DNA of 64,000 nt from a virus (lineage: Duplodnaviria > Heunggongvirae > Uroviricota > Caudoviricetes). The stretch covers positions 29,514-93,513 of IMG/VR virus record IMGVR_UViG_3300042879_005260; one strand, given 5' to 3'. The notes beneath the pieces are model-generated. The model had not been told where the DNA came from. It worked only from the letters and a program-made list of their open reading frames with translations, and ran no database searches. This document shows positions 32 to 63,729 of the stretch, one piece after another. The stretch's first letter is position 1, and each line of letters opens with the position of its first letter. The position numbers and the translations under genes are program-made.

Positions 32-592
32 ATGTGTATGGATGAAAAAATGCCTAAAAATTCAGAATCTCAAATGTTATCCGCAGTTGTTAAATGGATG
101 AAGAAAAATCTGCCTGAAAAAAAGTTTTTATATACTTGGGCAGATGGTATTGTTGGAAAAGTGGGATATGTTTACCAAGGGTCTAATTTTAATTATGGTG
201 GTTTTATTTGGACTGATATTTACATTTCAGCAACTGGTGAAAAAATACATCCTAGAAGTTCAAAAGCTCTTTTAATTGAAAACGCAGAATTTGTGGGTAA
301 AGATAAATTATTTTGGATGACACCAGATTTTATGGCATTTAAAGGCATTCGAAGAGTTAGAGGCAAACAATTTAGATATATTTACCCTTTAAATAAAGAA
401 GCGAAAAAAATATTAGAAAAAAATTCCACAGTTGATTGGCAACAAAAATACCCAAAAGAAGGTGATTTATTGTGGAAAGAACAAACAGGAAAAGGTGTTT
501 ATGTCAATCTAATTGGAAAACCTGAAATGGATTTAAGTGTTGTTGAATATAACCAGAAAAATGTTAATTCACATAAAAAATTAACGGTATAA
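32..592 (+). CDS. hypothetical protein (may start upstream of window)
   Basis: ORF track 186 aa; no recognisable motif. Confidence 0.4.
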   Translation: MCMDEKMPKNSESQMLSAVVKWMKKNLPEKKFLYTWADGIVGKVGYVYQGSNFNYGGFIWTDIYISATGEKIHPRSSKALLIENAEFVGKDKLFWMTPDFMAFKGIRRVRGKQFRYIYPLNKEAKKILEKNSTVDWQQKYPKEGDLLWKEQTGKGVYVNLIGKPEMDLSVVEYNQKNVNSHKKLTV

Positions 593-1156
593 AGTTACGG
601 TACCTCTTTTATATCCGTTAAAACCTTTAATTGTTTTATATTCAACATAATAAACATAGACACCAGATGGGCAATCATCACCGTTAAGTTTTCCATCCCA
701 AAAGTCATTAAAATTTTCAGTTGCAAAAACCAAACCACCCCATTTATTGTAAACAAAAATTTTTATTTCTGCCATGTAAGAAGATATTGGTTGCCAAATA
801 TCATTGAGATTATTACTATTTGGTGTAAAAGCGTTTGGTATTGTGATAATCGGGATTCTACAATTTATTACTTTAACATCGTAAATTTCAGGTTCAGACC
901 TACAATATAATGTGTTTTCAGAAAAAAGAATTATTTTATAATCACCAACATCCTTAAAGGTATATGTCATTTCTTTACCCGTAAAAGAAAAGATTGGCCA
1001 ATTGTTTAATTTAATTTCCCAATAATATTCACAATCAGGCGAACCAATCGAATTGTATGTAAAAGTATTGTTACTATCTTCACATAATTCTATTGTTTGG
1101 TTTTGTGAATAAAGATTGAAATTTATAAATAAGAAAAGTAATAAAATTAATCGCAT
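581..1156 (-). CDS. secreted protein with T9SS type B C-terminal sorting domain
   Basis: N-terminal signal peptide MRLILLLFLFINFNLYSQ; C-terminal IPNAFTPNSNNLNDIW...GVYVYYVEYK resembles gliding-motility/T9SS type B CTD. Confidence 0.55.
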   Translation of the reverse strand: MRLILLLFLFINFNLYSQNQTIELCEDSNNTFTYNSIGSPDCEYYWEIKLNNWPIFSFTGKEMTYTFKDVGDYKIILFSENTLYCRSEPEIYDVKVINCRIPIITIPNAFTPNSNNLNDIWQPISSYMAEIKIFVYNKWGGLVFATENFNDFWDGKLNGDDCPSGVYVYYVEYKTIKGFNGYKRGTVTLYR

Positions 1157-25753: not shown

Positions 25754-26719
25754 ATGGCTGAAACTTTATACGATGTTTTAGGTCTTAACAAGACAGCAAC
25801 AAAAGAAGAAATAAAAAAAGCTTATCGTAATTTAAGTAAACAACACCATCCAGATGTTGGCGGTGATGAGGAGGTTTTTAAAAAAATATCCCATGCCTAT
25901 AACATTTTGTCTGATGATGACAAAAGAAAAAATTATGATAACCATGGTAGTGAAAAAAACCAAAGATTTAACCCATTTGCCGGTAATCCCTTTACCAATA
26001 TTAGAATGCGACCAAGACCTATAAACATTGAATTACGTTTAACGGTGGAGGAAGTTTATAACGGTTCTTTAAAAAAAATCCATTTTAAAGTTGAAAAACC
26101 CTGTAGCACATGTAACGGTGTCGGTGCAACGGAAACTAAACGCTGTGATGTTTGTGAAGGTAAGGGTGCGATTATTCATCAAATACAAAATATGCAACAC
26201 ATTACAATGTGTACTACATGTAACGGTAGTGGTATAATACCTATTAAAAAATGTAATACATGCAACGGTATCGGCAGACAATTAGTGTCAGAAAATCATG
26301 ATATCGACATACCTAAAGGGGTTACAGAAGGTAACACTTTAATCTTAGAAGGTTTTGGTAATCAAAATACAGCTGGTTATCGTGGTGATGTTTTTTTATT
26401 AATAAAAGTAGAACCACATCCTGTTTACACAATAGAAGGCCTTGATATTAGCAAAAAAGAAGAATTACCTTTTATTGATATGGTTTTAGGTTGTAATTAT
26501 GAATTAGAAACTTTAGGTGGTAAATTTAAAATTACAATACCAGAAAGTTGCGAATCAAACAAAATTTTTCGGTTAAAAGGCCAAGGTATTAAGGATGAAA
26601 ATTCTGGACGTGTTGGTGATTTATATGTGAAAGTAATACCTAAAATACCAAAAGAATTAACAACAGAAGAAAAAAATACTCTTTTAAGTCTTAAAAACTT
26701 TAGTAATAAATTTTCCTGA
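25754..26719 (+). CDS. dnaJ: DnaJ-like chaperone
   Basis: J domain with HPD (YRNLSKQHHPDVGGD); four CxxCxGxG zinc-finger repeats. Confidence 0.8.
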   Translation: MAETLYDVLGLNKTATKEEIKKAYRNLSKQHHPDVGGDEEVFKKISHAYNILSDDDKRKNYDNHGSEKNQRFNPFAGNPFTNIRMRPRPINIELRLTVEEVYNGSLKKIHFKVEKPCSTCNGVGATETKRCDVCEGKGAIIHQIQNMQHITMCTTCNGSGIIPIKKCNTCNGIGRQLVSENHDIDIPKGVTEGNTLILEGFGNQNTAGYRGDVFLLIKVEPHPVYTIEGLDISKKEELPFIDMVLGCNYELETLGGKFKITIPESCESNKIFRLKGQGIKDENSGRVGDLYVKVIPKIPKELTTEEKNTLLSLKNFSNKFS

Positions 26720-29181: not shown

Positions 29182-29208
29182 TTTTATGACTCTTTGAAAT
29201 ATTTTAAT

Positions 29209-29279
29209 GTCCGATGGTGTAACGGCTAACATTTCTGAATTTGACTCAGAAGATTTCAGGTTCGAATCCTGATCGGACA
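29209..29279 (+). tRNA. tRNA-Gln(UUG)
   Basis: acceptor GTCCGAT/ATCGGAC, anticodon arm TCTGA-ATTTGAC-TCAGA, T-arm TCAGGTTCGAATCCTGA. Confidence 0.7.
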
Positions 29280-29288
29280 ACCATAACC

Positions 29289-29361
29289 GGAGCTTTCGTA
29301 TAGCTGGTGCGTACGTTGGACTGAAAATCCAAAGGACTAGGCTCGATTCCTAGAGGCTCCA
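29289..29361 (+). tRNA. tRNA-Phe(GAA)
   Basis: anticodon arm TTGGA-CTGAAAA-TCCAA; T-loop CTCGATT. Confidence 0.7.
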
Positions 29362-29367
29362 CTGAAC

Positions 29368-29441
29368 GGCGTCGTAGTCAAGTGGTTTAAGACAGGACTC
29401 TCATAAGGTCCCATTCGGGGGTTCGAATCCCTTCGACGCTA
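29368..29441 (+). tRNA. tRNA-Met/Ile2(CAU)
   Basis: anticodon arm GGACT-CTCATAA-GGTCC; T-arm GGGGGTTCGAATCCCTT. Confidence 0.65.
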
Positions 29442-29446
29442 CAAAT

Positions 29447-29519
29447 TCTCCTGAAGCATTGCTGGCGATGCACCTGACTTGTAATCAGGATACAATCGGT
29501 TCGATTCCGGTCGGGAGAT
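29447..29519 (+). tRNA. tRNA-Thr(UGU)
   Basis: anticodon arm CCTGA-CTTGTAA-TCAGG; T-loop TTCGATT. Confidence 0.65.
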
Positions 29520-29525
29520 CCAAAT

Positions 29526-29597
29526 AGTTCTGTAACTCAATGGAAGAGTACCAAGCTTACATCTTGGCTGTCGTTAGTTCGATTCTAACCAGAACTA
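29526..29597 (+). tRNA. tRNA-Val(UAC)
   Basis: acceptor AGTTCTG/CAGAACT; anticodon arm CCAAG-CTTACAT-CTTGG. Confidence 0.65.
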
Positions 29598-29604
29598 CTT
29601 AAAT

Positions 29605-29679
29605 GCCTCCATGGCGGAATTGGTAGACGCGTCACTCTTAGAAAGTGAATTTTTGTAGGTTCGAATCCTACTGGGGGCA
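29605..29679 (+). tRNA. tRNA-Leu(UAG), short variable arm
   Basis: Leu-type D-arm GCGGAATTGGTAGACGC; anticodon arm TCACT-CTTAGAA-AGTGA; discriminator A; only 75 nt. Confidence 0.55.
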
Positions 29680-29690
29680 CAAAAAAATAT

Positions 29691-29721
29691 TTGGTAAATT
29701 AAAAAATTTTATCTATATTTG
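29691..29721 (+). promoter_or_regulatory. Bacteroidetes-type promoter inside the tRNA cluster
   Basis: TTG at 29691, 20-nt gap, TATATTTG at 29714-29721, directly upstream of tRNA-Glu. Confidence 0.45.
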
Positions 29722-29733
29722 TACAACAATAAC

Positions 29734-29805
29734 GGTCGGTTCATCTAAGGGTTAGGATACAAGATTTTCATTCTTGTCATAGGGGTCCGAATCCCCTACC
29801 GACTA
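29734..29805 (+). tRNA. tRNA-Glu(UUC)
   Basis: anticodon arm CAAGA-TTTTCAT-TCTTG; T-arm AGGGGTCCGAATCCCCT. Confidence 0.65.
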
Positions 29806-29876
29806 CAAAAGGTTGATTGGGAATTCGGTGAACCGATGAGGTGAGTGAAACTAATCATAAAGTTCTTTGATATTAT

Positions 29877-29964
29877 GGCTGGGTGGCGAAATTTGGTTAT
29901 ACGCGAAAGACTTAAAATCTTTTGGACCGTGAGGTCCGTGCGGGTTCGAGTCCCGCCCCGGCTA
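29877..29964 (+). tRNA. tRNA-Leu(UAA), class II
   Basis: anticodon arm AAAGA-CTTAAAA-TCTTT; long variable arm TGGACCGTGAGGTCCGT; T-arm GCGGGTTCGAGTCCCGC. Confidence 0.7.
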
Positions 29965-29970
29965 CTAAAC

Positions 29971-30047
29971 ATGGTGATAGAGGAGTCAGGTTTATCTCGC
30001 TTGGTTTGGGACCAAGAATTACGTGGGTTCGAATCCCACTCACCATA
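29971..30047 (+). tRNA. tRNA-Pro(UGG)
   Basis: acceptor ATGGTGA/TCACCAT; anticodon arm CTTGG-TTTGGGA-CCAAG. Confidence 0.6.
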
Positions 30048-30055
30048 CTAAACAA

Positions 30056-30128
30056 GCCCTCGTGGCGCAACGGTGAGCGCAGGATGCTTATATCATCAAG
30101 GCTGTTGGTTCGAGTCCAACCGAGGGTA
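30056..30128 (+). tRNA. tRNA-Ile(UAU) candidate
   Basis: anticodon arm GGATG-CTTATAT-CATCA gives anticodon TAT; T-arm GTTGGTTCGAGTCCAAC. Confidence 0.5.
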
Positions 30129-30227
30129 CTAAAAAAAATATTAATCCTAGATTAAAATGAAAATAAAATATAAATATAAACAGTAAGGTTAGTCCACTAC
30201 GAATGGGCTAACCTTATAAAATGTTAA

Positions 30228-30299
30228 CCGCTCGTAGCAAACTGGTGTAGGCAATAGACTTTTAATCTATGGGGCTGGGTTCGACTCCCAGCGGGCGGA
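30228..30299 (+). tRNA. tRNA-Lys(UUU)
   Basis: anticodon arm ATAGA-CTTTTAA-TCTAT; T-arm CTGGGTTCGACTCCCAG. Confidence 0.65.
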
Positions 30300-30324
30300 C
30301 AAAAACCAAATTAAATAAGATTAC

Positions 30325-32443: not shown

Positions 32444-32520
32444 AGTCAGGTGGCTGAATTGGCGACAGAGGCACTCCATTAGACAATGGGTGGATGCAGG
32501 TTCGAGTCCTGTCCTGACTA
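32444..32520 (+). tRNA. tRNA-like element with aberrant anticodon region
   Basis: acceptor AGTCAGG/CCTGACT and T-arm GCAGGTTCGAGTCCTGT are canonical, but the central region forms an extended CCATT-AGAC-AATGG hairpin instead of a 7-nt anticodon loop. Confidence 0.4.
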
Positions 32521-32540
32521 CTAAAAAATTAAAAAATAAA

Positions 32541-33849: not shown

Positions 33850-34121
33850 GCACCTGTAGCTCAGTTGGATTAGAGCAACTGCCTCAAATCGGGGGTGTTA
33901 TGTCAGAAATGACATAATAGAATTCATCAAATTCGGGGAATCCTGTAAAATGGTAATCCCGAGCGAAGCCTGAAAAGGAACGTGTAGAGACTTGACGGTG
34001 AACACCTAAGTTAGAATCTAATAAGGTGATGGGAAAGTCCAGACCACAAACGTAAATGGTAGTGAAAACTATAGTGGTATGTCTAAGCAGTAGGTCCCAG
34101 GTTCGAATCCTGGCAGGTGTA
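33850..34121 (+). tRNA. tRNA-Arg(UCU) interrupted by a group I intron
   Basis: 5' exon GCACCTGTAGCTCAGTTGGATTAGAGCAACTGCCT (33850-33884); 3' exon TCTAAGCAGTAGGTCCCAGGTTCGAATCCTGGCAGGTGTA (34082-34121). Spliced product closely matches bacterial tRNA-Arg(UCU). Exon ends in U, intron ends in G. Confidence 0.6.
33885..34081 (+). ncRNA. group I intron (trnL-intron-like core), ~197 nt
   Basis: GGTAATCCCGAGCGAAGCC resembles the trnL intron GGGCAATCCTGAGCCAA element; GTGTAGAGACTTGACGG resembles the catalytic-core GCAGAGACTCAATGG; P7 pairing GACUU/AAGUC present. Confidence 0.55.
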
Positions 34122-34634: not shown

Positions 34635-35810
34635 TTTGTAAGACAAAATCGGGAAACCGAATCGTTCTTTGAAAAAATAGATTATCCGTTCAGGTGAAAG
34701 TAAGTTCTTCGGAACTATGATAACTTGATAAAGATATTGGGCCGTGTATAGTCCTTAAATAAACTACGAAAGTAGGATAAAGTGAAATCATCTGTGTTAG
34801 TGGTTTTGCGTCTTGGGAAACCGAGGTCGAGTACACAAGTGGGATATCATCTAACCTTTAGTACTGAGGGCAACGCTTTAGGGAAAATGGTTAGATGACT
34901 AAGCAATGTGGATTGTTTAGTTGAGGTGGGAACACCGATAAGAATAACCCATAGGAATCTTACAAAAAATGTGATTATCCAGTTACATTATTGTGGGTTC
35001 CAATACAAGAGAGGACTTAAAACCGAAAGGTAAGATGGAGAACGAGTGGTGTCGCTACCATCCCTATCAAAGATTTACCAAAATCTTGATATGAAGTAAT
35101 CTTAAAATATGGAAATGGGGACATTTCACTGAGTAGTTTGGTATTCTTTTCTTCAAAAGAGAACGGAGCCTACGACGGACCACTACTTGGACACATCCAC
35201 AACACAAAAACTTTATTATGAAAATTAAAGTCCATTTAATAAATAATTCTAAAGCAAAAGTGTTCGTCAGGTGTTGATGAAAGGTGATTACATAGTCATG
35301 AGTTGTTCATGGCACACTGAGACCGCAAGTTGATGTGTATTCTTGTGAAAAACCTCTAGTCCCGCAAGGATCAACTGGGGAGGCATCCTCGGAGAGAGTT
35401 GAGTAGAAAGAGAGTAGTTGGCACCTCTAGGAGTTGTATACCTAAAAAACCATCACTGAGAAATACTTCTCAAAAGGAAGTGGAAATAAAGGGAAACAAT
35501 AATCCTTTTAAAGGTTCTCACAAAAAACGTGTATTCTCAGCGTAAGTTTTAAAAAATATTTTAAAAGTAAAAAATCAAAACCACTGGTTAAACCCACTGG
35601 GGATTAGGCTCTAATGATGTCCACCCTTTGGTAAGTACTCACAATAGGCCGGCTTCTTTAATGGCTGATACGTGTATAAGTCCGAGCATAAAACACGAAC
35701 TCTACTTACTTTGTGAAATTACTGCCAATTGCAGACTACTATGTGGAATAAATAGATGACCTTCTGAACATAAAGATAAGTGCTCTTGGTTTGATTTTGT
35801 TATAATATAA
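34635..35810 (+). ncRNA. candidate large structured non-coding RNA (~1.2 kb, unknown family)
   Basis: downstream of promoter P2; no ORF above 60 aa on either strand; locally GC-richer than genome; many local hairpins; T-arm-like GGTTCGATTCC near 35855. Confidence 0.3.
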
Positions 35811-36039: not shown

Positions 36040-36110
36040 GCGGTATTTGTGTAGTGGTAAGACATGACATTGCCAATGTTAAGACGTAAGTTCGATTCTT
36101 GCATACCGCT
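36040..36110 (+). tRNA. tRNA-Gly(GCC)
   Basis: acceptor GCGGTAT/ATACCGC; anticodon arm TGACA-TTGCCAA-TGTTA; T-arm GTAAGTTCGATTCTTGC. Confidence 0.6.
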
Positions 36111-36156
36111 CTATTGATTTTTTTACATTGTAAACATATATTTATATTAAAAAAAT

Positions 36157-36708
36157 ATGAAAGATAAATTTGATGATTTTGGTGACGACTTTTTTGGTCG
36201 TTGGGAAGAGTTTAATAGATTAATGGTTAACTCACCTTTGATAAGAGATGAAATGGAAAAATTTCTTCGAATGCTAATGGATTCCAATGATTTAAATAAC
36301 GAAATTTCAAATATTAGAATCATACCTTTGAATGCTTATAAGCCAAATGATATTGATTCTTTTGATATTCCAGAAAACGAATTGGATGTTGAAAAAGGTG
36401 AAAATGAAAACGGTAAATGGGAAACTAAAAGTTGGACATCTCCAGATGGTTCTATGAGTTTTAAATCTTTTAGTATGTCATCAACACCCGAAGAATTTTT
36501 TTATAAAAATTTAATGTCAGATCTTTTTCAAACTGGTGACAATAGAAATTCAAAAAAATATACTACAGAAGATTTGAAAAATTTTAAAATAGAAAAACTC
36601 CAAAAATCTTTAAATGCCGCAGTTGAAGTTGAAGATTATGAAAAAGCTGCGGAACTTAAAAAAATGATTGAAAAAATAAAAGAAGAAAATTTTGATAATA
36701 AAAAATAA
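36157..36708 (+). CDS. acidic protein with UVR-like motif
   Basis: C-terminal LQKSLNAAVEVEDYEKAAELKKMIEKIK resembles UvrB/UvrC (UVR) domain. Confidence 0.4.
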   Translation: MKDKFDDFGDDFFGRWEEFNRLMVNSPLIRDEMEKFLRMLMDSNDLNNEISNIRIIPLNAYKPNDIDSFDIPENELDVEKGENENGKWETKSWTSPDGSMSFKSFSMSSTPEEFFYKNLMSDLFQTGDNRNSKKYTTEDLKNFKIEKLQKSLNAAVEVEDYEKAAELKKMIEKIKEENFDNKK

Positions 36709-36727
36709 TTTTATATATTTGTGATAT

Positions 36728-36890
36728 ATTTATAAAACAGAAAATGAAAAATTGGCAAAACATATCGATTAACCATAGTAACCGAATTAGTTCGGAATGT
36801 ATGAGGTGTGTCTTGTCCAGATTTAAGGTATAATTATTTTTATAAAAAATTGGATAACCCACCTCAAGAAATTTGATGGTGGGTTTTTTG
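36728..36890 (+). ncRNA. candidate small RNA (~160 nt) between promoter and terminator
   Basis: TTGATA..TATATTTG promoter at 36692-36721; terminator hairpin 36856-36885 plus T-run; only a 29-aa ORF inside. Confidence 0.3.
36855..36890 (+). terminator. rho-independent terminator
   Basis: aacccacc...ggtgggtt hairpin plus T6. Confidence 0.6.
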
Positions 36891-37006
36891 TTATTTGACA
36901 TATTGGAAATAAATTGGAGAGTTAAGCAGATGCATTGGAGCGTCGACCAGCTTTGAAACCTGGGTCTCGTTAAATTGAGTGGGGGTCGGGTCCTCAGCTC
37001 TCCGCT

Positions 37007-37081
37007 GTGTCTGTAGCTTAGATGGTTTAAAGCGTCTGATTGTGGTTCAGAAGACCGTGGGTTCGAATCCCACCAGACACC
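37007..37081 (+). tRNA. tRNA-His(GUG)
   Basis: acceptor GTGTCTG/CAGACAC; anticodon arm TCTGA-TTGTGGT-TCAGA; T-arm GTGGGTTCGAATCCCAC. Confidence 0.65.
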
Positions 37082-37087
37082 TTATAG

Positions 37088-37159
37088 GGGGGTGTAGCTC
37101 AGAGGCAGAGCAAACTACTGTTAATAGTTAGGCCGAGATTTCAAAATTCTCCATCCCCG
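37088..37159 (+). tRNA. tRNA-Asn(GUU)
   Basis: acceptor GGGGGTG/CATCCCC; anticodon arm AACTA-CTGTTAA-TAGTT; T-loop TTCAAAA. Confidence 0.55.
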
Positions 37160-37165
37160 CAAAAT

Positions 37166-37238
37166 AGTACCGTGTCTGAACGGTTTAGGAACTATCCTGA
37201 TAAGATAGGAAAAGTGGGTTCGACTCCCACCGGTACTA
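37166..37238 (+). tRNA. tRNA-Ile(GAU)
   Basis: acceptor AGTACCG/CGGTACT; anticodon arm CTATC-CTGATAA-GATAG; T-arm GTGGGTTCGACTCCCAC. Confidence 0.65.
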
Positions 37239-37244
37239 CAACAT

Positions 37245-37326
37245 GCATCTGCTCATTGGTGTGACCAACCGGCTCCAACCCGGTAATGCGTAAGCGTGGT
37301 TAAGAGTTCGAATCTCTTCGGATGCG
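37245..37326 (+). tRNA. tRNA with anticodon CCA (Trp?) and long extra arm, atypical
   Basis: acceptor GCATCTG/CGGATGC; anticodon arm ACCGG-CTCCAAC-CCGGT; T-arm AAGAGTTCGAATCTCTT; 82 nt. Confidence 0.4.
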
Positions 37327-37331
37327 CAAAA

Positions 37332-37418
37332 GGAAGATAGGTAAATATTGGTTTGTTACAACATCCTGCTAAGATGTCCCAGGTAAAACTGGTGAGGGTT
37401 CAATTCCCTTGTCTTCCG
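37332..37418 (+). tRNA. tRNA-Ser(GCU), class II
   Basis: anticodon arm ACATC-CTGCTAA-GATGT; long variable arm CCCAGGTAAAACTGGT; CCA encoded. Confidence 0.65.
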
Positions 37419-37424
37419 CCAAAT

Positions 37425-37499
37425 AGTCCCATAGCTCAACGGATTTAGAGTACAGTGCTACGAACACTGCGGTTGAAGGTTCAAATCCTTCTGGGACTA
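37425..37499 (+). tRNA. tRNA-Arg(ACG)
   Basis: acceptor AGTCCCA/TGGGACT; anticodon arm CAGTG-CTACGAA-CACTG; T-arm GAAGGTTCAAATCCTTC. Confidence 0.65.
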
Positions 37500-37540
37500 C
37501 AAACATTTACTAAAAAAAGAAAATTTCATATTATTCAAAT

Positions 37541-41378: not shown

Positions 41379-42092
41379 GTGATATTTATTTATAAATCAA
41401 ATTTAATTATGAAAAATATAATTACACTTAATGAAAATCAACTTGAAAAATTGGTTAAAAAAATTATCCAAGAAAATGATGAAAAAGAAAGCAATCGTTA
41501 TATGTTTTTTTCCAATCTAGAACAAATGCATAGGCAAACAGCAATGTTGTTGGAAATGGATGAAGAAACAATAACAAATATATTGGAAAACGGTCATGAT
41601 TGGGCACAAGACCATATCGCAGAAGCAAAAAATAATATGGACCAAGTTTTCGATTTTTTAATGAACGAAACTAAAGGTGGTGACCACGAGTATGATGACT
41701 ATGATGATGACTATGATGATGACTATGATGATAATGAGATGATGGTTATGGAACCGCAACTAGAATCTTATTTAAGAGAAAATTCTGATAGAATTATAGA
41801 TTTTGATGAATTTGGTTTTACTGAATTACTTCCTATAAATGAAGCTAAAGGTAAGGGTGCTTGTGCTAATAGAGGTTTAAGTAAACCATGGTTAACACCT
41901 GGTGGTCCTAAAAAACGTTCTGTTTGTGTTAAAAACGCAAGTGGTAATGTGGTTAAAGTAAACTTTGGTGACCCAAATATGAGAATAAAAAAGTCTAACC
42001 CAAAAAGACGTAAATCTTTTAGAGCTCGTCATAAATGTAGTAACCCAGGTCCTAAATGGAAGGCAAAATATTGGAGTTGCCGCGCGTGGTGA
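41379..42092 (+). CDS. protein with acidic DDYDDDYDDDYDD repeat and basic Cys-containing C-terminal tail
   Basis: codon-level tandem repeat at 41694-41740; tail ...HKCSNPGPKWKAKYWSCRAW. Confidence 0.4.
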   Translation: MIFIYKSNLIMKNIITLNENQLEKLVKKIIQENDEKESNRYMFFSNLEQMHRQTAMLLEMDEETITNILENGHDWAQDHIAEAKNNMDQVFDFLMNETKGGDHEYDDYDDDYDDDYDDNEMMVMEPQLESYLRENSDRIIDFDEFGFTELLPINEAKGKGACANRGLSKPWLTPGGPKKRSVCVKNASGNVVKVNFGDPNMRIKKSNPKRRKSFRARHKCSNPGPKWKAKYWSCRAW

Positions 42093-42978
42093 TCATCAAC
42101 TCAATACCTTTATAAGATTTTAACTTACCTTTAATAACTTTAGTTATATTTGACCTATCTAAATTATTTTCTTTACAAAATTTAGATAGGTCATTTTTTA
42201 ATATTTCCATAATTAAATTTTTGTTTCTATCGTAAAAATTTACCACTTCAAGATTTAAATTATCATATTCTTGACATTTTGTTAAAATTTTATTGTCAGT
42301 TTGTTGAGTATCTAAAAAACAATAGTAACCTTTATTTCTTTTAATATTTTTTATATGACCCCTTAATGTATTAGTAAAAAAATGTATTTTTAAATTATTT
42401 TTTTCACAAAAATCTTCTAAACTTTTAATTCTTAAAATATTGTTTTGGGCATCAACTAAAACCCAATTCTTTGCTTTATTTTTATTTTGTTCTACTAATC
42501 TAGATGTGTTTTTTTGGCTTATTTTATTTTTATGTTCCTGACTAAATTTTTTACCCTTATTAGACATAATGAATTTTTTAACTTTTTCTTGATATTCCAC
42601 ACTATTTAAAGTTTTTTGCCATTTTTCCGATTTTTTTAAACCGTCAGAAATTATTTTAGATAAACATTCAGACACCATTCGCATCCTGTTTTTTTGACCA
42701 CCACCTAAAATATTGTACCCATTGGGTGTTATAGAGCTTAATTGTTTTATCCAGTAAATTTCTTTTTCATCTAATTCTTCTAAAGTTGAAGCCTTATCTA
42801 TTATTTCCCATTCAAAATTTTCTATACCATATTTTTTTATGGCATTTAAAAACGGCCTATTACTTTTATCAAGTTTTGATTCTTTTAAATGACCTTTAAT
42901 TCTTTTATCTAAATTTCTAATTGTTTGACCAATATAGATTTTGTTATTTATTTTATTTTTAACTCTGTAAATTATCAT
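42052..42978 (-). CDS. GIY-YIG homing endonuclease
   Basis: MIIYRVKNKINNKIYIGQT...R..KGH GIY-YIG motif; 308 aa with extended C-terminal region. Confidence 0.7.
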   Translation of the reverse strand: MIIYRVKNKINNKIYIGQTIRNLDKRIKGHLKESKLDKSNRPFLNAIKKYGIENFEWEIIDKASTLEELDEKEIYWIKQLSSITPNGYNILGGGQKNRMRMVSECLSKIISDGLKKSEKWQKTLNSVEYQEKVKKFIMSNKGKKFSQEHKNKISQKNTSRLVEQNKNKAKNWVLVDAQNNILRIKSLEDFCEKNNLKIHFFTNTLRGHIKNIKRNKGYYCFLDTQQTDNKILTKCQEYDNLNLEVVNFYDRNKNLIMEILKNDLSKFCKENNLDRSNITKVIKGKLKSYKGIELMITTRGNSNILPSI

Positions 42979-54734: not shown

Positions 54735-54920
54735 ATGTTAATAGTTAAAGTCACAGGAAAAATAGATTCAGCAATTAAAGCTTTACGTTCAAAAGTTATT
54801 AAAACCCGCCAAATGCGAGAACTTAATGATAGAAGAGAATATAAAAAAGATTCAGAAAAGCGTAGAGAGATGGTAAAGAAGGCAATTCACGTTCAAAAAA
54901 AATATAAAAACAAAGATTGA
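54735..54920 (+). CDS. rpsU: ribosomal protein bS21
   Basis: 61-aa basic protein MLIVKVTGKIDSAIKALRSKV...RREYKKDSEKRREMVKKA follows the S21 pattern (IKV..AL+.F+....+....RRRE.YEKP). Confidence 0.55.
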   Translation: MLIVKVTGKIDSAIKALRSKVIKTRQMRELNDRREYKKDSEKRREMVKKAIHVQKKYKNKD

Positions 54921-55832: not shown

Positions 55833-57674
55833 TTAAATTTTGATTTTGTAATTATTGGGTAGATGATTTTTATTTAAAAAATTAATTAATTCTTCTGCAA
55901 TTTTATCGTTTTCATCGATTGGTTTTTGGTTTCCTTTTGTTGGGTAATTACCACTATGTTGAGCCTTTCTAAAAATCAATGATTCTTTATAAATTTTATC
56001 TAAAGTATTATCTTCATAAATAACTATGCACTTCTCTTCAAAAGAAGTTGGTTCGTAAACTTCTTTAATGTTAATCGTTGTATTTTCTTTATTTATTTTT
56101 TTTGTTATCGGCAAATACACCTCAAGAGTGGAACCAGAATTTTCTGTTTGTATATGGAAAATACGTGAATACCCATTTTTTACCTTATTACCGTAACCAC
56201 CAACACAATGACCCATCATTTGGCCTTCAGATTTAAGATCAATAACGGTTGTTAACTCTTTAACATTTTTTGCCCATTTAAAATCTTTAAGGTCAATTTT
56301 ATCAACCAATTCTTTGGTGTTTGTTTCTTTTTCTTTTTTAAAAATTTCTAAAATAACATCATTAGTAATAGTATTACCTATTAAATCTTTATATTCTGAC
56401 CAATTCAAGGTTTCCAAAGAACCAATAAACCATTGGCCTTCTTTGTTTGTTAGATTTTTTATAAATTTAATAATTTGATAAGTTTCTTCTAACGTATTAG
56501 TGTGTTTTAAAAAATTACGCAATCTACCGTGTTCATGACAAAATTCATCGACATAATCAACATGTTTAACATTAAAATTACATTTATAATAATCTTTTTT
56601 TGACATCAACATCTCAAAAGTAAACCTATAGGAATTATAAGTAGGTTTTATTTCTGATTTATTCTTATCATCATCATTTCGAACCACTCTTTCCCAAACA
56701 TCTTCAACAGACTTTTTATCCAAAAAAACATTTTTATAAAATATTTTATTTATTTTATTTTGTTCACTTTTGTTACGATAATTATACATCAAATCCCAAA
56801 TCTTTTTTAATTTCGACATATTGTCAACAGATTCAAAGATGTCAAAATTTAACACAGGATCATAAGACCACAAGTTTTCTTTAATTTCGACATCATTGTG
56901 ATATTGTAAATCACTTGGTTTTAAAGGCCTTAAAATAAAATATTTTTCTATTTCATTTTTAAATTTATCATATTTTATTTTTGTTTCAGGGCCAATAATT
57001 TTGTTGATAGTTCTGTTGTTAAGGTTTTTTGCTGCAGCGGTTAAAAATCGCATTTCGTGTTTTATATCACAATAAGCGTTTAATTCTTTTATTTTTTTAA
57101 ATAACCTGATACTGCTCTGGATAGGTGAACAAGGGTTTATAACTCTGATTTGTTTGGTTTTTAAAAAATCCACAAATTCTGGTGTGTATATGATTTTTTC
57201 AGATTCTAAATCCAAACCGGCTTTACAACAATTTAAATCAAAACCGTCGATAACAACGTATTTTTCATTTTTATCACCATTACCCTTTTTATAAATATAA
57301 TTAATATTGTTGATTAAACCATTACGTGAATGGTTCACTACCCTCATCATAGAACCAGTTTCTGTTATGAAAATACGACCATAATGATCATCAACAATCT
57401 GTAAACCACTTTCAGTGATAAATGTTGTTGGGTACCAATTATCTTTAATCGATTTTACACCATTAATATTTGATTTTTTTTCTTCCTCGACACGGTGATA
57501 AACATCAATATCATTAATTACAGGTTGGCCACCGTGAACCATGGATGTTAGAATATTGGATACGGAGCCACCTGCGATAAAATCTTCGTTATTAATTTTA
57601 TCAATGTTAACGTATCTTTTTAAAATTTCTAAAACTTTATAGTAAGTTTCTTTTGAATCTAAAAACTGTTTCAT
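55833..57674 (-). CDS. hypothetical protein (613 aa, start adjusted)
   Basis: track start 57755 lies inside a terminator hairpin; the ATG at 57674 (MKQFLDSK) is preceded by TTATATTTG -7 box. Confidence 0.45.
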   Translation of the reverse strand: MKQFLDSKETYYKVLEILKRYVNIDKINNEDFIAGGSVSNILTSMVHGGQPVINDIDVYHRVEEEKKSNINGVKSIKDNWYPTTFITESGLQIVDDHYGRIFITETGSMMRVVNHSRNGLINNINYIYKKGNGDKNEKYVVIDGFDLNCCKAGLDLESEKIIYTPEFVDFLKTKQIRVINPCSPIQSSIRLFKKIKELNAYCDIKHEMRFLTAAAKNLNNRTINKIIGPETKIKYDKFKNEIEKYFILRPLKPSDLQYHNDVEIKENLWSYDPVLNFDIFESVDNMSKLKKIWDLMYNYRNKSEQNKINKIFYKNVFLDKKSVEDVWERVVRNDDDKNKSEIKPTYNSYRFTFEMLMSKKDYYKCNFNVKHVDYVDEFCHEHGRLRNFLKHTNTLEETYQIIKFIKNLTNKEGQWFIGSLETLNWSEYKDLIGNTITNDVILEIFKKEKETNTKELVDKIDLKDFKWAKNVKELTTVIDLKSEGQMMGHCVGGYGNKVKNGYSRIFHIQTENSGSTLEVYLPITKKINKENTTINIKEVYEPTSFEEKCIVIYEDNTLDKIYKESLIFRKAQHSGNYPTKGNQKPIDENDKIAEELINFLNKNHLPNNYKIKI

Positions 57675-57722
57675 AAAAATTATTTTCTGATTACAAATAT
57701 AAAAAATTTTATTGATATTATC

Positions 57723-57749
57723 AATAAAAAAACCCCTGAATTCAGGGGT
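57723..57749 (-). terminator. rho-independent terminator for minus-strand ncRNA
   Basis: cccctgaattcagggg hairpin followed on the minus strand by T7. Confidence 0.55.
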
Positions 57750-57756
57750 TTTCAAA

Positions 57757-58236
57757 AGGCCAAGGATTTATCCCCTGACTCCACCACCTAATTTTTACTG
57801 ACAAAAACAAGGAAAAAGATTTAAAGTGGAGATGTTGGGTGCCGCCCCCAAGTCTTGTTCTAACTCAAAAATGTCTTCTACATACTTAGGATAAAGTTTT
57901 CTAACTTTCCAAAAATATTCAGTTCCCTTATTGTACAGTTCGGTTTACTAACAACTTTACCTCTGCCATCTTATCTTTTCCAAGGTTAAGATGTTACCTG
58001 ATTCGGACTTCTGTTCCTAGGTTATCTGTCTACCGACCCGACGTTGTGTTAATCTTAGATTACGCTACAACTTCTGCCCCTTCAGTAGCAAAGCTACCTA
58101 CAGTTGCGTTTGCGAATACATCGCCATTTGGAATTTTGAGAGTTGGTTTTTAAGAGCCACCCTAACAAGTCTCTGTATGCTTACACATAATCGATTATTA
58201 GCCAATCAATTCTATTTCATCCCCATATTTTCAAAG
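57757..58236 (-). ncRNA. candidate ~480-nt structured ncRNA (unknown family)
   Basis: minus-strand promoter TTGACC..17..TTATATTTG at 58243-58274; terminator at 57723-57749; no ORF; visibly GC-richer than flanks; transcript would start near GGGGAUGAAAUAGAAUUGAUUGG. Confidence 0.35.
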
Positions 58237-58242
58237 AACAAT

Positions 58243-58274
58243 ACAAATATAAGAAACTTTTTTTAAATGGTCAA
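58243..58274 (-). promoter_or_regulatory. Bacteroidetes-type promoter (minus strand)
   Basis: reverse complement reads TTGACC, 17 nt, TTATATTTG. Confidence 0.45.
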
Positions 58275-58275
58275 A

Positions 58276-58467
58276 TTAAAGACTACCTAATGCGGCCGCT
58301 AATCTTTGTAGTTTTATCATTTCTTCTTTTAATTCTTTGATTCTTTTATGATCTTCAGGTGTTAAATTAAAATTAGATTCGATTAAACTTACTTCTCTTG
58401 TTAATTTATCGTGTTCTAACAATAAACTATTAAATTGTTTTGCCTTTTGTTCTACATTTGTATTCAT
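58276..58467 (-). CDS. hypothetical small coiled-coil protein
   Basis: ORF track 63 aa. Confidence 0.3.
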   Translation of the reverse strand: MNTNVEQKAKQFNSLLLEHDKLTREVSLIESNFNLTPEDHKRIKELKEEMIKLQRLAAALGSL

Positions 58468-58604: not shown

Positions 58605-59210
58605 TTATTCACCATGATGGTCAACGTTAGAAATTTCTCTTTTTACCATTATTTCTTTAATTTCCTGGTAAGAAATCGGTTTATAATCAATACAGTTACA
58701 ACCAACATCGAGTACTTTTCGTCGATAATAATCTTGGTTTGATTTTATTAAACTGCCGTGGCAGTGCCCATGGATCATCCAACTGCCGTGATGTGCCCTA
58801 TTCCAACTAAGGATTGGATAATGACTCATTACTATTTGTTGATACCCATTTGCACCTCTTGCTTTTTTGTTGTCATCATCTTTAACCCAAATTTCGGTTC
58901 CATATTCGTGAATAGATTCCCAACGGTCAAGTTTAACAATATCTTTCATGTTGTCATGGTTTCCCATAATAAAATGTATTTTACCGTTAACAGAGTGTAC
59001 AAACCATTTTGCAACATCGCTACGACCAAAGCTTAAATCACCTAAATAATAAACAATATCTTCAGGTTGAACCACTTGGTTCCAGTTTTTAACTAATTCA
59101 GCGTGCATCTCCTCAACGGTCGCAAAAGGCCTGGAATCGTATTTTAAAACGTTTTTGTGACTTAAATGTAAATCACTTATAAAATATATGTTTTGAGTTT
59201 CGTACCTCAT
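58605..59210 (-). CDS. metallophosphoesterase (Ser/Thr phosphatase-like)
   Basis: ISDLHLSH, GDLSFG, GNHD, MSHYP, GHCHG motifs. Confidence 0.65.
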   Translation of the reverse strand: MRYETQNIYFISDLHLSHKNVLKYDSRPFATVEEMHAELVKNWNQVVQPEDIVYYLGDLSFGRSDVAKWFVHSVNGKIHFIMGNHDNMKDIVKLDRWESIHEYGTEIWVKDDDNKKARGANGYQQIVMSHYPILSWNRAHHGSWMIHGHCHGSLIKSNQDYYRRKVLDVGCNCIDYKPISYQEIKEIMVKREISNVDHHGE

Positions 59211-59398
59211 ATGGAATAATCAACTTTGTGTTTTGATTTTCTAGAATAATCCTTTACGGATTTGTGTGTTTGGTTTTTTGGACGATTGTGGAAACCAGAT
59301 TCAATCATCTCATTCCTGCGATTTGCTTTGTTTGCCTTAACCAAAGTACTTTTGGTGATATGTATTGTCATTGTTTTCATACCACAAAGATAAATCAA
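59207..59398 (-). CDS. hypothetical small basic protein
   Basis: ORF track 63 aa. Confidence 0.3.
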   Translation of the reverse strand: MIYLCGMKTMTIHITKSTLVKANKANRRNEMIESGFHNRPKNQTHKSVKDYSRKSKHKVDYSI

Positions 59399-59425
59399 AA
59401 AAACATATTGGCAAAATATTTTATC

Positions 59426-59932
59426 TTATTTTATATCATAAGAAATATCCTTTTCTTTCAAAACATCTTCAATAACCGGATTTGGTTTTGTTAATATAAC
59501 TTTAATAATATATTTATTCAAATTTGTAACATCCCCAAAGACCCTTTCTTCCATTTCATCGTATTCCCTACCACCAAATTGTGAATAAGGTGTTATTTTA
59601 TAATTTTGTGAAATTTTATCGCCATCTAAAACAAATTGTACATTATCATCTGTTCTTATATAATTTTTGTTCCTAGTAAAAGAAATAAATTCTTTCATTT
59701 TTATTTTATCTTTCGGTATCAAATTACCAAAAATAAAATAAAAATCTTCGGGTTTATTTCTAAAATCTGTTACAATATTGTTTGTGTATGATTGTGCAAC
59801 TAACTTATTGTCTTTTAAAATATTTATCGCATTTATTGGTGATGTGTTATGATATAAAATACCAACTTTTTTCCCTTCAGTAAGATTTACATTTTTAAAC
59901 TTTTCAATAAGTAACCTCATCTCTTTACTCAT
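59426..59932 (-). CDS. hypothetical protein
   Basis: ORF track 168 aa. Confidence 0.4.
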   Translation of the reverse strand: MSKEMRLLIEKFKNVNLTEGKKVGILYHNTSPINAINILKDNKLVAQSYTNNIVTDFRNKPEDFYFIFGNLIPKDKIKMKEFISFTRNKNYIRTDDNVQFVLDGDKISQNYKITPYSQFGGREYDEMEERVFGDVTNLNKYIIKVILTKPNPVIEDVLKEKDISYDIK

Positions 59933-59960
59933 AATTTTGTTTTATAAATAAATATATAAG

Positions 59961-60347
59961 TTAGAAGTTTTGTTTTTTAAAATTCTCCAGGTAAGAAACA
60001 ATATTGACCTTTCCAACGGGATTGGCGGAATGTACTTTATATTTTGGTAATTTTAAATTGTTATCAAGACAGTACTCACACAACCATTTTGCGGCATCAT
60101 ATCCTGTTTTTTCTTTAAAATTAGCTTCCATTGGGTCAGGTGGACTTTCATGGCCACCGTTGTTATAAAACCATCTTGTATGTTCAAAACCAAGGTCATG
60201 GTCAAAACTAATAAAATCTGGAAGGCCAAACTTTTGGATAAAATTAACAAATTCGTGGTAATTTCTGGCTATGGCCCAATCTTTGGGTTTATAATTTGGG
60301 TATATCATGTTGATATCCCTAACGTCATCTAAAAAAAGATTTTTCAT
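59961..60347 (-). CDS. hypothetical protein
   Basis: ORF track 128 aa, adjacent to DHFR. Confidence 0.4.
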   Translation of the reverse strand: MKNLFLDDVRDINMIYPNYKPKDWAIARNYHEFVNFIQKFGLPDFISFDHDLGFEHTRWFYNNGGHESPPDPMEANFKEKTGYDAAKWLCEYCLDNNLKLPKYKVHSANPVGKVNIVSYLENFKKQNF

Positions 60348-60363
60348 TTTACAAATATAAGTA

Positions 60364-60831
60364 TTATTTTTTTCTTATCCAAGTCTGATATTTAAAGTTT
60401 TCTTTTTGTTCTTTAAAATAAGAACGCCAATCTTTTTCACTATATTCGGGAAAATAAGTATCACCATGGTATTCACCATCAACAACGGTGGCATATATCC
60501 TATCTATCATTGGGAAAAACTCTTTATAAATCTGGCCACCACCAATAACAAAAACTTCTGCGTCTTTTGAAACTTCTTTAATAACTTCTTTAATGTCGTG
60601 AAAGACCAAACAATTTTCAGCTTTAAAACTTTTATCTTTGGTTAAAATAATGTTAAGTCTATTGGGTAAAGGTTTCCCTATGGACTCAAAAGTTTTTCGA
60701 CCCATAATAACGGCATGGCCCTGGGTTAACTTTTTAAAACGTTTTAAATCTTCAGGAAGGTACCACAATAATTTGTTGTCACCGCCAATTAAAAAATTTT
60801 TATCGTGAGCAACAATAGCAGAAAGTATCAT
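60364..60831 (-). CDS. folA: dihydrofolate reductase
   Basis: MILSAIVAHDKNFLIGGDNKLLWYLPEDLKRFKKLTQGHAVIMGRKTFESIG...VIGGGQIY matches DHFR. Confidence 0.8.
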   Translation of the reverse strand: MILSAIVAHDKNFLIGGDNKLLWYLPEDLKRFKKLTQGHAVIMGRKTFESIGKPLPNRLNIILTKDKSFKAENCLVFHDIKEVIKEVSKDAEVFVIGGGQIYKEFFPMIDRIYATVVDGEYHGDTYFPEYSEKDWRSYFKEQKENFKYQTWIRKK

Positions 60832-63384: not shown

Positions 63385-63398
63385 AATTTATATAATCG

Positions 63399-63470
63399 AG
63401 GCCAGAGCAGAAATCGAATCTGCCTAAGGGTTTTTGCAGAACCCCACCTAAACCACTCGGTCATCCGGCC
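63399..63470 (-). tRNA. tRNA-Cys(GCA)
   Basis: reverse complement: acceptor GGCCGGA/TCTGGCC, anticodon arm GGGTT-CTGCAAA-AACCC, T-arm GCAGATTCGATTTCTGC. Confidence 0.55.
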
Positions 63471-63477
63471 ATTATTG

Positions 63478-63550
63478 TGGACCACAACGGAATCGAACCG
63501 TTAATTTCACTTGAATGCAAATCAAGTGCCCTACCTTCGGGATGTAGCCC
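63478..63550 (-). tRNA. tRNA-Ala(UGC)
   Basis: reverse complement: acceptor GGGCTAC/GTGGTCC with G3:U70; anticodon arm CTTGA-TTTGCAT-TCAAG; T-loop TTCGATT. Confidence 0.55.
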
Positions 63551-63564
63551 ATTTAATATTTTTG

Positions 63565-63637
63565 CGGTCCACACGGGAGTTGAACCCGTTCCATACTCCG
63601 TGACAGGGAGATATCTTAACCGTTTGACCTGTGGACC
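63565..63637 (-). tRNA. tRNA-Asp(GUC)
   Basis: reverse complement: acceptor GGTCCAC/GTGGACC, anticodon loop CTGTCAC, T-arm ACGGGTTCAACTCCCGT. Confidence 0.55.
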
Positions 63638-63641
63638 AGGG

Positions 63642-63729
63642 TGGGTGTGGTAGGACTCGAACCTACGATGTTTAGTCTAAAGACCTTTGATTTACAGTCA
63701 AAGCCAATCGCCACTATGGTGACACACCC
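63642..63729 (-). tRNA. tRNA-Tyr(GUA), class II
   Basis: reverse complement: acceptor GGGTGTG/CACACCC, anticodon arm TTTGA-CTGTAAA-TCAAA, long variable arm, T-arm GTAGGTTCGAGTCCTAC. Confidence 0.6.

Follow-up and report, generated by a model that had tools for sequence, protein, structure and literature searches.

Which RNA would be made from a segment of phage DNA that has a promoter at one end, a terminator at the other and no gene in between? Such a segment lies at positions 57757–58236, on the minus strand, of the 64,000-nt stretch of viral DNA analyzed here (the window). A first-pass annotation, made from the sequence without database searches, described it as a non-coding transcript of about 480 nt, GC-richer than its flanks, that could not be placed in a known family; tmRNA had been considered and set aside for want of a tRNA-like 3′ end. 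An Rfam search, RNA-seq, comparative genomics and covariation analysis of homologs were proposed as checks, and a missed protein-coding frame was named as a possible alternative. In the current work, we describe the computational follow-up of this locus. The dismissal of tmRNA proves to be wrong: the segment 58224–57827 (-) is very probably a divergent, functional, phage-encoded one-piece tmRNA (ssrA) gene with its own promoter, a reading that is supported by homology, by the presence of all structural elements with covariation, and by purifying selection on the tag peptide.

Limits of the Transcription Unit

As a description of the locus, the earlier account holds up well. A sigma-70 scan finds a promoter-like site upstream (TTGACC-17-TATATT, 58274..58246 (-)), a terminator-like hairpin with a T-run bounds the segment on the other side (57753..57728 (-)), no open reading frame longer than 35 aa lies between the two, and the GC fraction rises to 0.40–0.42 across 57900–58200 vs. 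0.18–0.30 in the flanks. The segment is thus a stand-alone RNA gene that does not encode a protein, as had been proposed, whereas the statement that it belongs to no known family does not survive a full-length alignment to the tmRNA family RF00023. The transcript had also been taken to start at GGGGAUGAAAUAG; this position (58224) is instead the 5′ end of the mature RNA, and the predicted transcription start lies about 15 nt upstream, near 58239. The features of the gene, all on the minus strand, are as follows.

58244..58275 (-), promoter of the Bacteroidetes sigma-A type: TTTG at 58275-58272 (-33), a 20-nt spacer, and TATATTTG at 58251-58244 (-7)
58225..58239 (-), predicted 5′ leader (UUGUUCUUUGAAAAUAU region; about 15 nt), deduced from where the promoter lies and where the mature RNA begins
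57827..58224 (-), mature one-piece tmRNA (ssrA) of 398 nt, from G1 at 58224 to the discriminator A at 57827, defined by RF00023, the helix map and covariation
58203..58224 (-), 5′ tRNA-like half from the helix map: acceptor strand GGGGAUG and the D-loop analogue AAAUAGAAUUGA, with UAG replacing the usual UGG
58060..58125 (-), tag reading frame: resume codon GGC at 58125-58123, 21 sense codons, stop codon UAA at 58062-58060, peptide GDVFANATVGSFATEGAEVVA
57827..57854 (-), 3′ tRNA-like half: GAC, T-stem UUGGG/CCCAA, T-loop GGCGGCA, acceptor strand CAUCUCC, discriminator A
57758..57826 (-), conserved 3′ trailer, kept in L225, L221, L228, L230, and L232
57721..57753 (-), intrinsic terminator: 11-bp stem GAAAACCCCUG/CAGGGGUUUUU followed by a U-run

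The -7 box of Bacteroidetes sigma-A promoters is TAnnTTTG, at positions -12 to -5 (PMC9723704). The motif TTATATTTGTA, which holds TAnnTTTG, occurs in 5 exact copies and in 20 copies with at most one mismatch (10.3±2.7 expected), and the composite TTTG-N18-21-TAnnTTTG occurs 11 times (5.05±2.13 expected); the same pattern of TTTG followed by TAnnTTTG also precedes several tRNA clusters in the window. The promoter motif recurs upstream of homologs of the RNA (L221, L225, L230, and L232), the leader sequence GTTCTTTGAAAWTAT is kept in homologs, and terminators with covarying stems stand at the same place in them. The leader is presumably removed by RNase P.

Family Assignment and Relatives

In a permissive Rfam scan of 801 nt (57600-58400), RF00023 aligned end to end (model positions 1-374) with 58224..57824 (-) at 35.2 bits and E = 2e-12. 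The Rfam check thus yielded a full-length family alignment but not a score at the gathering threshold of 47 bits, and the search at gathering score returned no match over the 57757-58236 region; ARAGORN likewise reported no tmRNA in the window. Folding was of little help, as the minimum free energy fold of the single sequence was uninformative (z = -0.95) and RNAalifold did not recover the pseudoknotted fold from unguided MAFFT alignments.

Relatives could be retrieved only by some routes. Neither a distant-mode blastn search with the region (50,697 phage records) nor the exact 23-mer of the 5′ end in IMG/VR produced a match; a search for related loci in IMG/VR with the downstream protein found nothing, and a pattern in which CATCTCCAC was obligatory matched nothing but ordinary ssrA genes whose T-loops are canonical. 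The exact T-arm 17-mer had two chance matches in IMG/VR (L001 and L002), both in GC-rich coding DNA. Structure-aware patterns led to a strain with 99.4% identity (L047), in which the RNA differs by one synonymous tag change and one base in the PK1 region, and to three distant phage tmRNAs (L034/L179 and L152/L168/L220) that score 76–105 bits against RF00023, with 105 bits for L152, 76 for L034, and 77 for L179, all above the gathering threshold. Synteny supplied the closer relatives. The 613-aa protein encoded downstream has 63 homologs, and their contigs show a conserved gene block with a gap of about 620 nt in which RNA homologs reside (L221-224, L225-227, L228, L232, and L230). The full-length, unspliced syntenic homologs are 70–87% identical to the window RNA (86.5% at most) and also score above the gathering threshold (L225, 71.8 bits; L221, 71.5 bits; L232, 82 bits). 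In L230, a group I intron (102 bits; 476-723 (+)) splits the T-loop as UU|intron|CGAAU, which suggests that such genes are kept as functional RNAs.

The comparative approach thus showed the RNA to be kept in at least seven other phage lineages, and this distribution, with the E-value of 2e-12, places the feature far beyond chance. The lack of a match by ARAGORN, or by Rfam at gathering threshold, is what one would see of a novel structured RNA unrelated to tmRNA, a reading that is effectively refuted and to which we assign almost no probability: the RF00023 alignment spans the full length, homologs as much as 86.5% identical pass the tmRNA threshold, and every tmRNA element is present with covariation.

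Architecture and Covariation

The claim that the transcript has no tRNA-like 3′ end is contradicted by a T-arm at 57851-57835, an acceptor strand at 57834-57828, and a discriminator A at 57827. The 5′ GGGGAUG (58224-58218) pairs at all seven positions with CAUCUCC (57834-57828), including G3:U70, with the T-arm and the discriminator A adjoining. This end lies about 75 nt upstream of the terminator rather than abutting it, and it was overlooked because a conserved trailer of that length separates the two and because its T-loop (GGCGGCA) is non-canonical. No CCA is encoded—CUU follows the discriminator A—and the tRNA genes of the window phage mostly lack an encoded CCA as well.

All remaining elements of a one-piece tmRNA could be placed. 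The acceptor stem covaries at positions 5 and 6 within the close clade and at position 7 relative to L152 and L034, and the T-arm (UUGGG-GGCGGCA-CCCAA; 5-bp stem and 7-nt loop) is 100% paired, with four of its five pairs changing on both sides among relatives. Helix 2 (P2a-d), which joins the tRNA-like domain to the body, includes P2d, GCAUAC/GUAUGU (6/6 paired), the counterpart of the conserved GCAUG/CAUGU box, in which two pairs covary in the close clade and three positions vary across L152, L034, and L179. Upstream of the resume codon lies PK1, with stems AGAG/CUCU and AGGG/CUCU and 13 nt between it and GGC; these stems are just 4 bp each, with one mismatch beside stem 2. The PK1 topology is the same in L152 and L034, where the stems reach 5-7 bp, so that this pseudoknot is weaker in the window RNA; within the clade, stem 1 is 100% and stem 2 is 82% paired. 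Helix 5 is followed by PK2, PK3, and PK4, all ahead of the 3′ strand of helix 2. Stem 2 of PK3 (7-8 bp) has a wholly different sequence in the window, L152, and L034; within the close clade, both partners are exchanged in five of its seven pairs. P1, the T-arm, P2a-d, PK1, helix 5, PK2-4, and the 3′ hairpin occupy equivalent positions in L152 and L034.

These observations were quantified in an alignment of seven sequences from the closer clade. The structure leaves 91.1% of cells paired, vs. 37-46% when partners are slid; because the window sequence served as the template for the structure, this percentage is inflated, whereas the count of double-sided changes is not. By that count, 26 of 87 pairs changed on both sides, compared with 12.9±2.4 after shuffling (0/500 shuffles), and the covariation score was 0.252 vs. 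0.121 for shuffled and 0.05-0.07 for slid alignments. The covariation that had been suggested as a check is therefore present.

The Tag Reading Frame

The stop codon of the tag frame sits in the upper stem of helix 5, and the 21-codon frame is common to L225, L221, L232, L230, and L228 with no indels and no stops. The tag peptide of L225 is identical to that of the window, with two synonymous differences between the frames, whereas the other four tags follow GD[VI]F[AT][ND]ATVG[SNH]F[AV]TEGA[EQ]VVA at a constant 21 codons; a homologous tag frame is reported by ARAGORN in L152. Only 15 of 63 columns of the frame are variable (4, 2, and 9 at the first, second, and third codon positions), compared with 39-59% of columns in the rest of the RNA, which makes the tag frame its most conserved part. 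In sequence terms, this pattern is the signature of a translated tag under purifying selection. The tag ends in VVA rather than the usual LAA and starts with Gly (GGC); tags with an initial Gly are typical of Bacteroidetes tmRNAs.

The region also holds ORFs of 29-35 aa, and a small protein-coding gene might have been missed among them, the 35-aa ORFs at 58098-58205 (-) and 58046-58153 (+) being examples. However, these ORFs cut across conserved RNA helices and show no codon-position bias, which is confined to the tag frame, and substitutions outside the tag are those of compensatory base pairing. The probability of such a gene is negligible.

A Remodelled tRNA-Like Domain

An unusual part of the RNA is its tRNA-like domain, which lacks the canonical T-loop (U54 U55 C56 R57 A58), including the otherwise universal U54-U55, and the GG of the D-loop and carries GGCGGCA and UAG instead. 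In the closest relatives, the T-loops are UUCGACU, UUCGAUC, and UUCGAGC, and the D-loop has GG. Comparison with L225 shows how localized the change is: RNA positions 100-339 are 96-97% identical, whereas positions 1-50 and 340-398—that is, the tRNA-like domain and helix 2—are only 57-70% identical. Divergence between the window phage and L225 is mosaic genome-wide as well.

Across the roughly 90 distinct tmRNAs fetched for comparison, a G at the second T-loop position always accompanies UAG or CAG in the D-loop, and nearly all UUC loops accompany GG. Elsewhere in these loci, the carriers of the GGCGGCA/UAG type of combination are alphaproteobacterial two-piece tmRNAs and a few of the one-piece form (85-158 bits), and the 3′ tRNA-like half matches that of a two-piece tmRNA from Rickettsiales (L202) at 28 of 29 positions. 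The coupling in the window RNA follows the rule of other xGC T-loops and thus marks a coherent variant, which argues against a decayed domain; since the same coupled variant is found in tmRNAs that Rfam recognizes, it is a natural variant and does not disqualify the RNA from tmRNA membership. The sequences read as a coordinated switch to an alternative elbow, by convergence or exchange, rather than as decay. The 36-bit shortfall in Rfam score and the ARAGORN miss arise because this domain has been remodelled.

Two other readings of the remodelled domain have to be weighed. The first is that the RNA is a tmRNA-mimicking decoy that binds host SmpB or ribosomes, is neither charged nor translated, and so blocks host trans-translation during infection. 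A non-canonical T-loop, the missing CCA, a sub-threshold Rfam score, and a tRNA-like domain that has diverged much faster than the rest (57-70% vs. 96-97% identity to L225) would all suit a decoy, but the alanyl-tRNA synthetase determinant G3:U70 and the discriminator A are kept, the T-loop/D-loop type is that of Rfam-recognized alphaproteobacterial tmRNAs, and changes in the tag frame are mostly synonymous, a mark of purifying selection on a peptide for which a decoy would have no use. We therefore consider a decoy very unlikely. Little credence can be given, too, to a decaying, non-functional ssrA relic in the lineage of the window phage. Its Rfam score is the lowest of the clade (35 bits vs. 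71-105) and its PK1 is weaker than those of relatives, as might be expected of a relic; against this, no helix is disrupted, the T-loop and D-loop changes are coordinated, the tag is intact with a peptide identical to that of L225, the promoter, trailer, and terminator are intact, and the strain L047 shows neutral changes only.

Detection suffers from such variation, as loci L003-L079 and L221-L232 show. In 48 sequences with a tmRNA 3′ domain bearing a non-UUC T-loop, several of which hold the 3′ end only, ARAGORN reported only nine tmRNA genes; L221, L225, L232, and L230, whose T-loops are canonical but which lack an encoded CCA, went undetected as well. Thus, the usual detectors overlook genes of this kind—ARAGORN nearly all of the non-UUC or CCA-less tmRNAs here, and Rfam the window gene—so the number of tmRNAs is probably underestimated in surveys of phage translation genes. 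Having arisen inside a clade with canonical loops, the coupled xGC T-loop and UAG D-loop provide a natural example in which to examine the rebuilding of the tmRNA elbow.

Proposed Course of Expression and Action

From these features, we infer how a functional tmRNA would be expressed, processed, and charged, and what would become of tagged proteins. Transcription from the Bacteroidetes-type promoter would yield a precursor of about 510 nt, from which RNase P would trim the leader of about 15 nt, and the structured trailer of about 75 nt would be removed together with the terminator. CCA would be added post-transcriptionally, as the phage's own CCA-less tRNA genes must also require, to give a predicted processed RNA of about 400 nt ending in ...CUCCACCA. 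By virtue of its G3:U70 acceptor stem, the 398-nt product would accept alanine and, after binding SmpB and EF-Tu, would move into ribosomes that have stalled. These would take up translation again at GGC (58125) and add A-GDVFANATVGSFATEGAEVVA to the protein before release at UAA. Ribosomes would thereby be recycled during infection and truncated proteins marked. A tblastn search of the 64-kb window with E. coli SmpB as the only query, which is a weak test, yielded no SmpB gene. This result weighs against the tmRNA reading, as do the Rfam score below the gathering threshold, the ARAGORN miss, the loss of U54-U55, the short PK1 stems, the unencoded CCA, and the VVA end of the tag.

The 3′ Trailer and Its UGGUGGA Module

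Between the tRNA-like end and the terminator, the trailer is composed of four parts.

57812-57787 (-), A/U-rich hairpin of variable sequence
57786-57780 (-), single-stranded UGGUGGA, invariant
57778-57760 (-), second hairpin, UCAGGG..CCUUGG
57759-57758 (-), CC

The trailer has a fold z-score of -2.85, and its second hairpin changes in a compensatory manner (UCAGGG..CCUUGG in the window, UCGAGG..CCUCGG in L225 and L221, and CCGAAC..GUUCGG in L230). The structure belongs to the tmRNA strand because it contains G·U pairs; an inverted, attP-like tmRNA fragment is disfavored as an origin of the trailer, as these pairs become A·C mismatches on the other strand. An alternative helix from RNAalifold, GGUGGA/UCGGCC, both strands of which are invariant, was set aside, as it clashes with the covarying hairpin. 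In L232, a 97-aa ORF lies between the tmRNA and the module, which still adjoins the terminator.

The heptamer is perfectly complementary to UCCACCA, with which the mature RNA would end, even though CCA is not encoded; UCCACCA is the invariant 3′ terminus of tmRNA and also that of tRNA-Ala. A scan of 58 distinct one-piece tmRNA genes showed UGGUGGA in 9 of them, compared with about 2.9 matches expected by chance. Its position differs among phages, being in the 3′ trailer of the window phage and its close relatives and within the mature RNA of other phage tmRNAs. The full hairpin-UGGUGGA-hairpin-GCC module lies inside the mature tmRNA region of L198 (5735-5800 (+)) and L144, hairpin-UGGUGGA occurs in L178 about 123 nt ahead of the tmRNA 3′ end, and L152 has the heptamer alone inside its tmRNA (6255 (+)).

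The module may pair in cis within the precursor, protect or sense the CCA end, or influence termination. A more specific proposal, which we regard as rather doubtful, is a dedicated anti-3′-end element that pairs with U70-A76 and acts in cis or trans as a clamp or sensor, controlling the maturation, protection, or charging of the phage tmRNA, or termination upstream of the Gad2-like nucleotidyltransferase gene. In T-box riboswitches, the UGGN of the antiterminator bulge pairs with the NCCA 3′ end of tRNA, and the trailer resembles this arrangement in having a single-stranded UGGU... between helices, directly upstream of an intrinsic terminator and complementary to an ACCA end. Unlike a T-box, the trailer has neither Stem I nor a specifier and consists of about 75 nt with two simple hairpins; its complementarity runs 7 nt, into the acceptor stem, and its motif also occurs inside the mature tmRNAs of other phages. 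No T-box was matched in the permissive Rfam scan of 57600-58400. The conserved module nonetheless provides a testable lead on the handling of tmRNA 3′ ends.

Relation to Known tmRNAs

With one-piece bacterial tmRNA (RF00023), the window RNA shares gene order, all elements, a stop codon in helix 5, and a length of about 400 nt. It departs from the standard form in its T-loop (GGCGGCA rather than UUCRAnY) and D-loop (UAG rather than UGG), in having no encoded CCA, in its long tag of 21 codons (Gly...VVA), and in its structured 3′ trailer. With alphaproteobacterial two-piece tmRNA (RF01849/RF04321), it shares a tRNA-like domain of nearly identical sequence, including the coupling of a GGCRGnA T-loop with a UAG D-loop; over its first 14 nt, GGGGAUGAAAUAG(A/G), the 5′ end is also that of the two-piece tmRNA L215. 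In contrast to the two-piece genes, the window gene is not permuted and runs from 5′ GGGG to the T-arm at the 3′ end; the truly permuted genes L202, L206, and L215 differ from it, and RF04321 matched the window only in part (21 bits). Outside the tRNA-like domain, the RNA, together with its tag and genomic context, belongs with a Bacteroidetes-phage clade in which the other members have canonical UUCGAnY T-loops. The permuted-type loci compared here (L202-L215) come from genomes rather than viral contigs. Separately, more than 70 marine viral contigs in IMG/VR (L080-L197) carry permuted two-piece tmRNA genes of alphaproteobacterial type with the T-loop GGCAGUA, which may be genes of the phages themselves or fragments of host attachment sites.

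The tmRNAs of huge or jumbo phages are already known and were found with ARAGORN (Al-Shayeb et al., 2020; PMC7162821). Like those, the window RNA is carried by a large, tRNA-rich phage genome and presumably sustains translation during infection; unlike those, the window gene and its closest relatives escape ARAGORN, and in this clade the tmRNA lies within the conserved DHFR-to-bS21 block of Bacteroidetes-type freshwater phages.

Gene Neighborhood and Host

The conserved block comprises DHFR, cREC, a metallophosphoesterase, a small ORF, the gap of about 620 nt, the Gad2-like gene, a gene for a 314-aa protein, and, in reverse orientation, bS21; its part from the Gad2-like gene to bS21 is syntenic across the phages checked. 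In the window, the following genes belong to the block or bear on the host.

60364-60831 (-), DHFR, in the upstream block 58605-60831
59961-60347 (-), cREC_REC cyclic-phosphate-processing receiver domain protein, upstream block
58605-59210 (-), calcineurin-like phosphoesterase, upstream block
55833-57674 (-), Gad2-like protein directly downstream of the RNA, with a precomputed Pfam match to PF26128 'Gad2' that is also found on homologs
54735-54920 (+), bS21-like ORF of 61 aa, on the opposite strand as in the phages of PMC9723584
2378-3622 (-), protein with PKD domains and a T9SS C-terminal sorting domain (Por_Secre_tail)

The upstream genes may form an RNA-end-processing or repair neighborhood beside the tmRNA. 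In the Gad2-like protein, a nucleotidyltransferase-like motif in the N-terminal part (IAGGSVSN...NDIDVY) is combined with a PcfJ-like domain at the C terminus; this 613-aa protein was considered as a CCA-adding enzyme, but the idea lacks Pfam support, and homologs are annotated as PF26128 'Gad2' and PcfJ.

An alphaproteobacterial host, which the tRNA-like domain had brought to mind, was set aside in favor of Bacteroidota on the basis of promoter type, the T9SS-domain protein, and bS21 synteny. The protein with PKD domains and a T9SS sorting domain is a hint of a Bacteroidota host, to which the synteny and the reverse-strand bS21-like ORF also point; the ORFs equivalent to the latter in L221-L232 have precomputed PF01165 matches. 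Freshwater phages that encode bS21 have Bacteroidetes/Flavobacteriia as predicted hosts (PMC9723584), and the window phage fits this group and probably infects Flavobacteriia. The word 'tmRNA' is absent from the text of that study (PMC9723584). A clade of abundant freshwater phages that encode bS21 thus carries its own ribosome-rescue RNA beside other translation-related genes.

Elsewhere in the window, which is an AT-rich phage genome as a whole, about 21 tRNA genes form three clusters (29208-30300, 36040-37500 (+), and 63398-63729 (-)); a GOLLD RNA (306 bits; 35129-35543 (+)) lies among tRNA genes, and a group I intron match (61 bits; 33875-34062 (+)) lies between clusters. L152 likewise has a GOLLD RNA (313 bits; 8757-9168 (-)), 2.3 kb from its tmRNA, so that GOLLD and tmRNA occur together in two lineages. 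One tRNA with the anticodon UUA (32444-32521 (+)) is a putative UAA (ochre) suppressor, although long ORFs in the window read normally under the standard code. The phage further encodes a full-length DnaJ chaperone homolog (25754-26719 (+)) and a GIY-YIG endonuclease (42052-42978 (-)).
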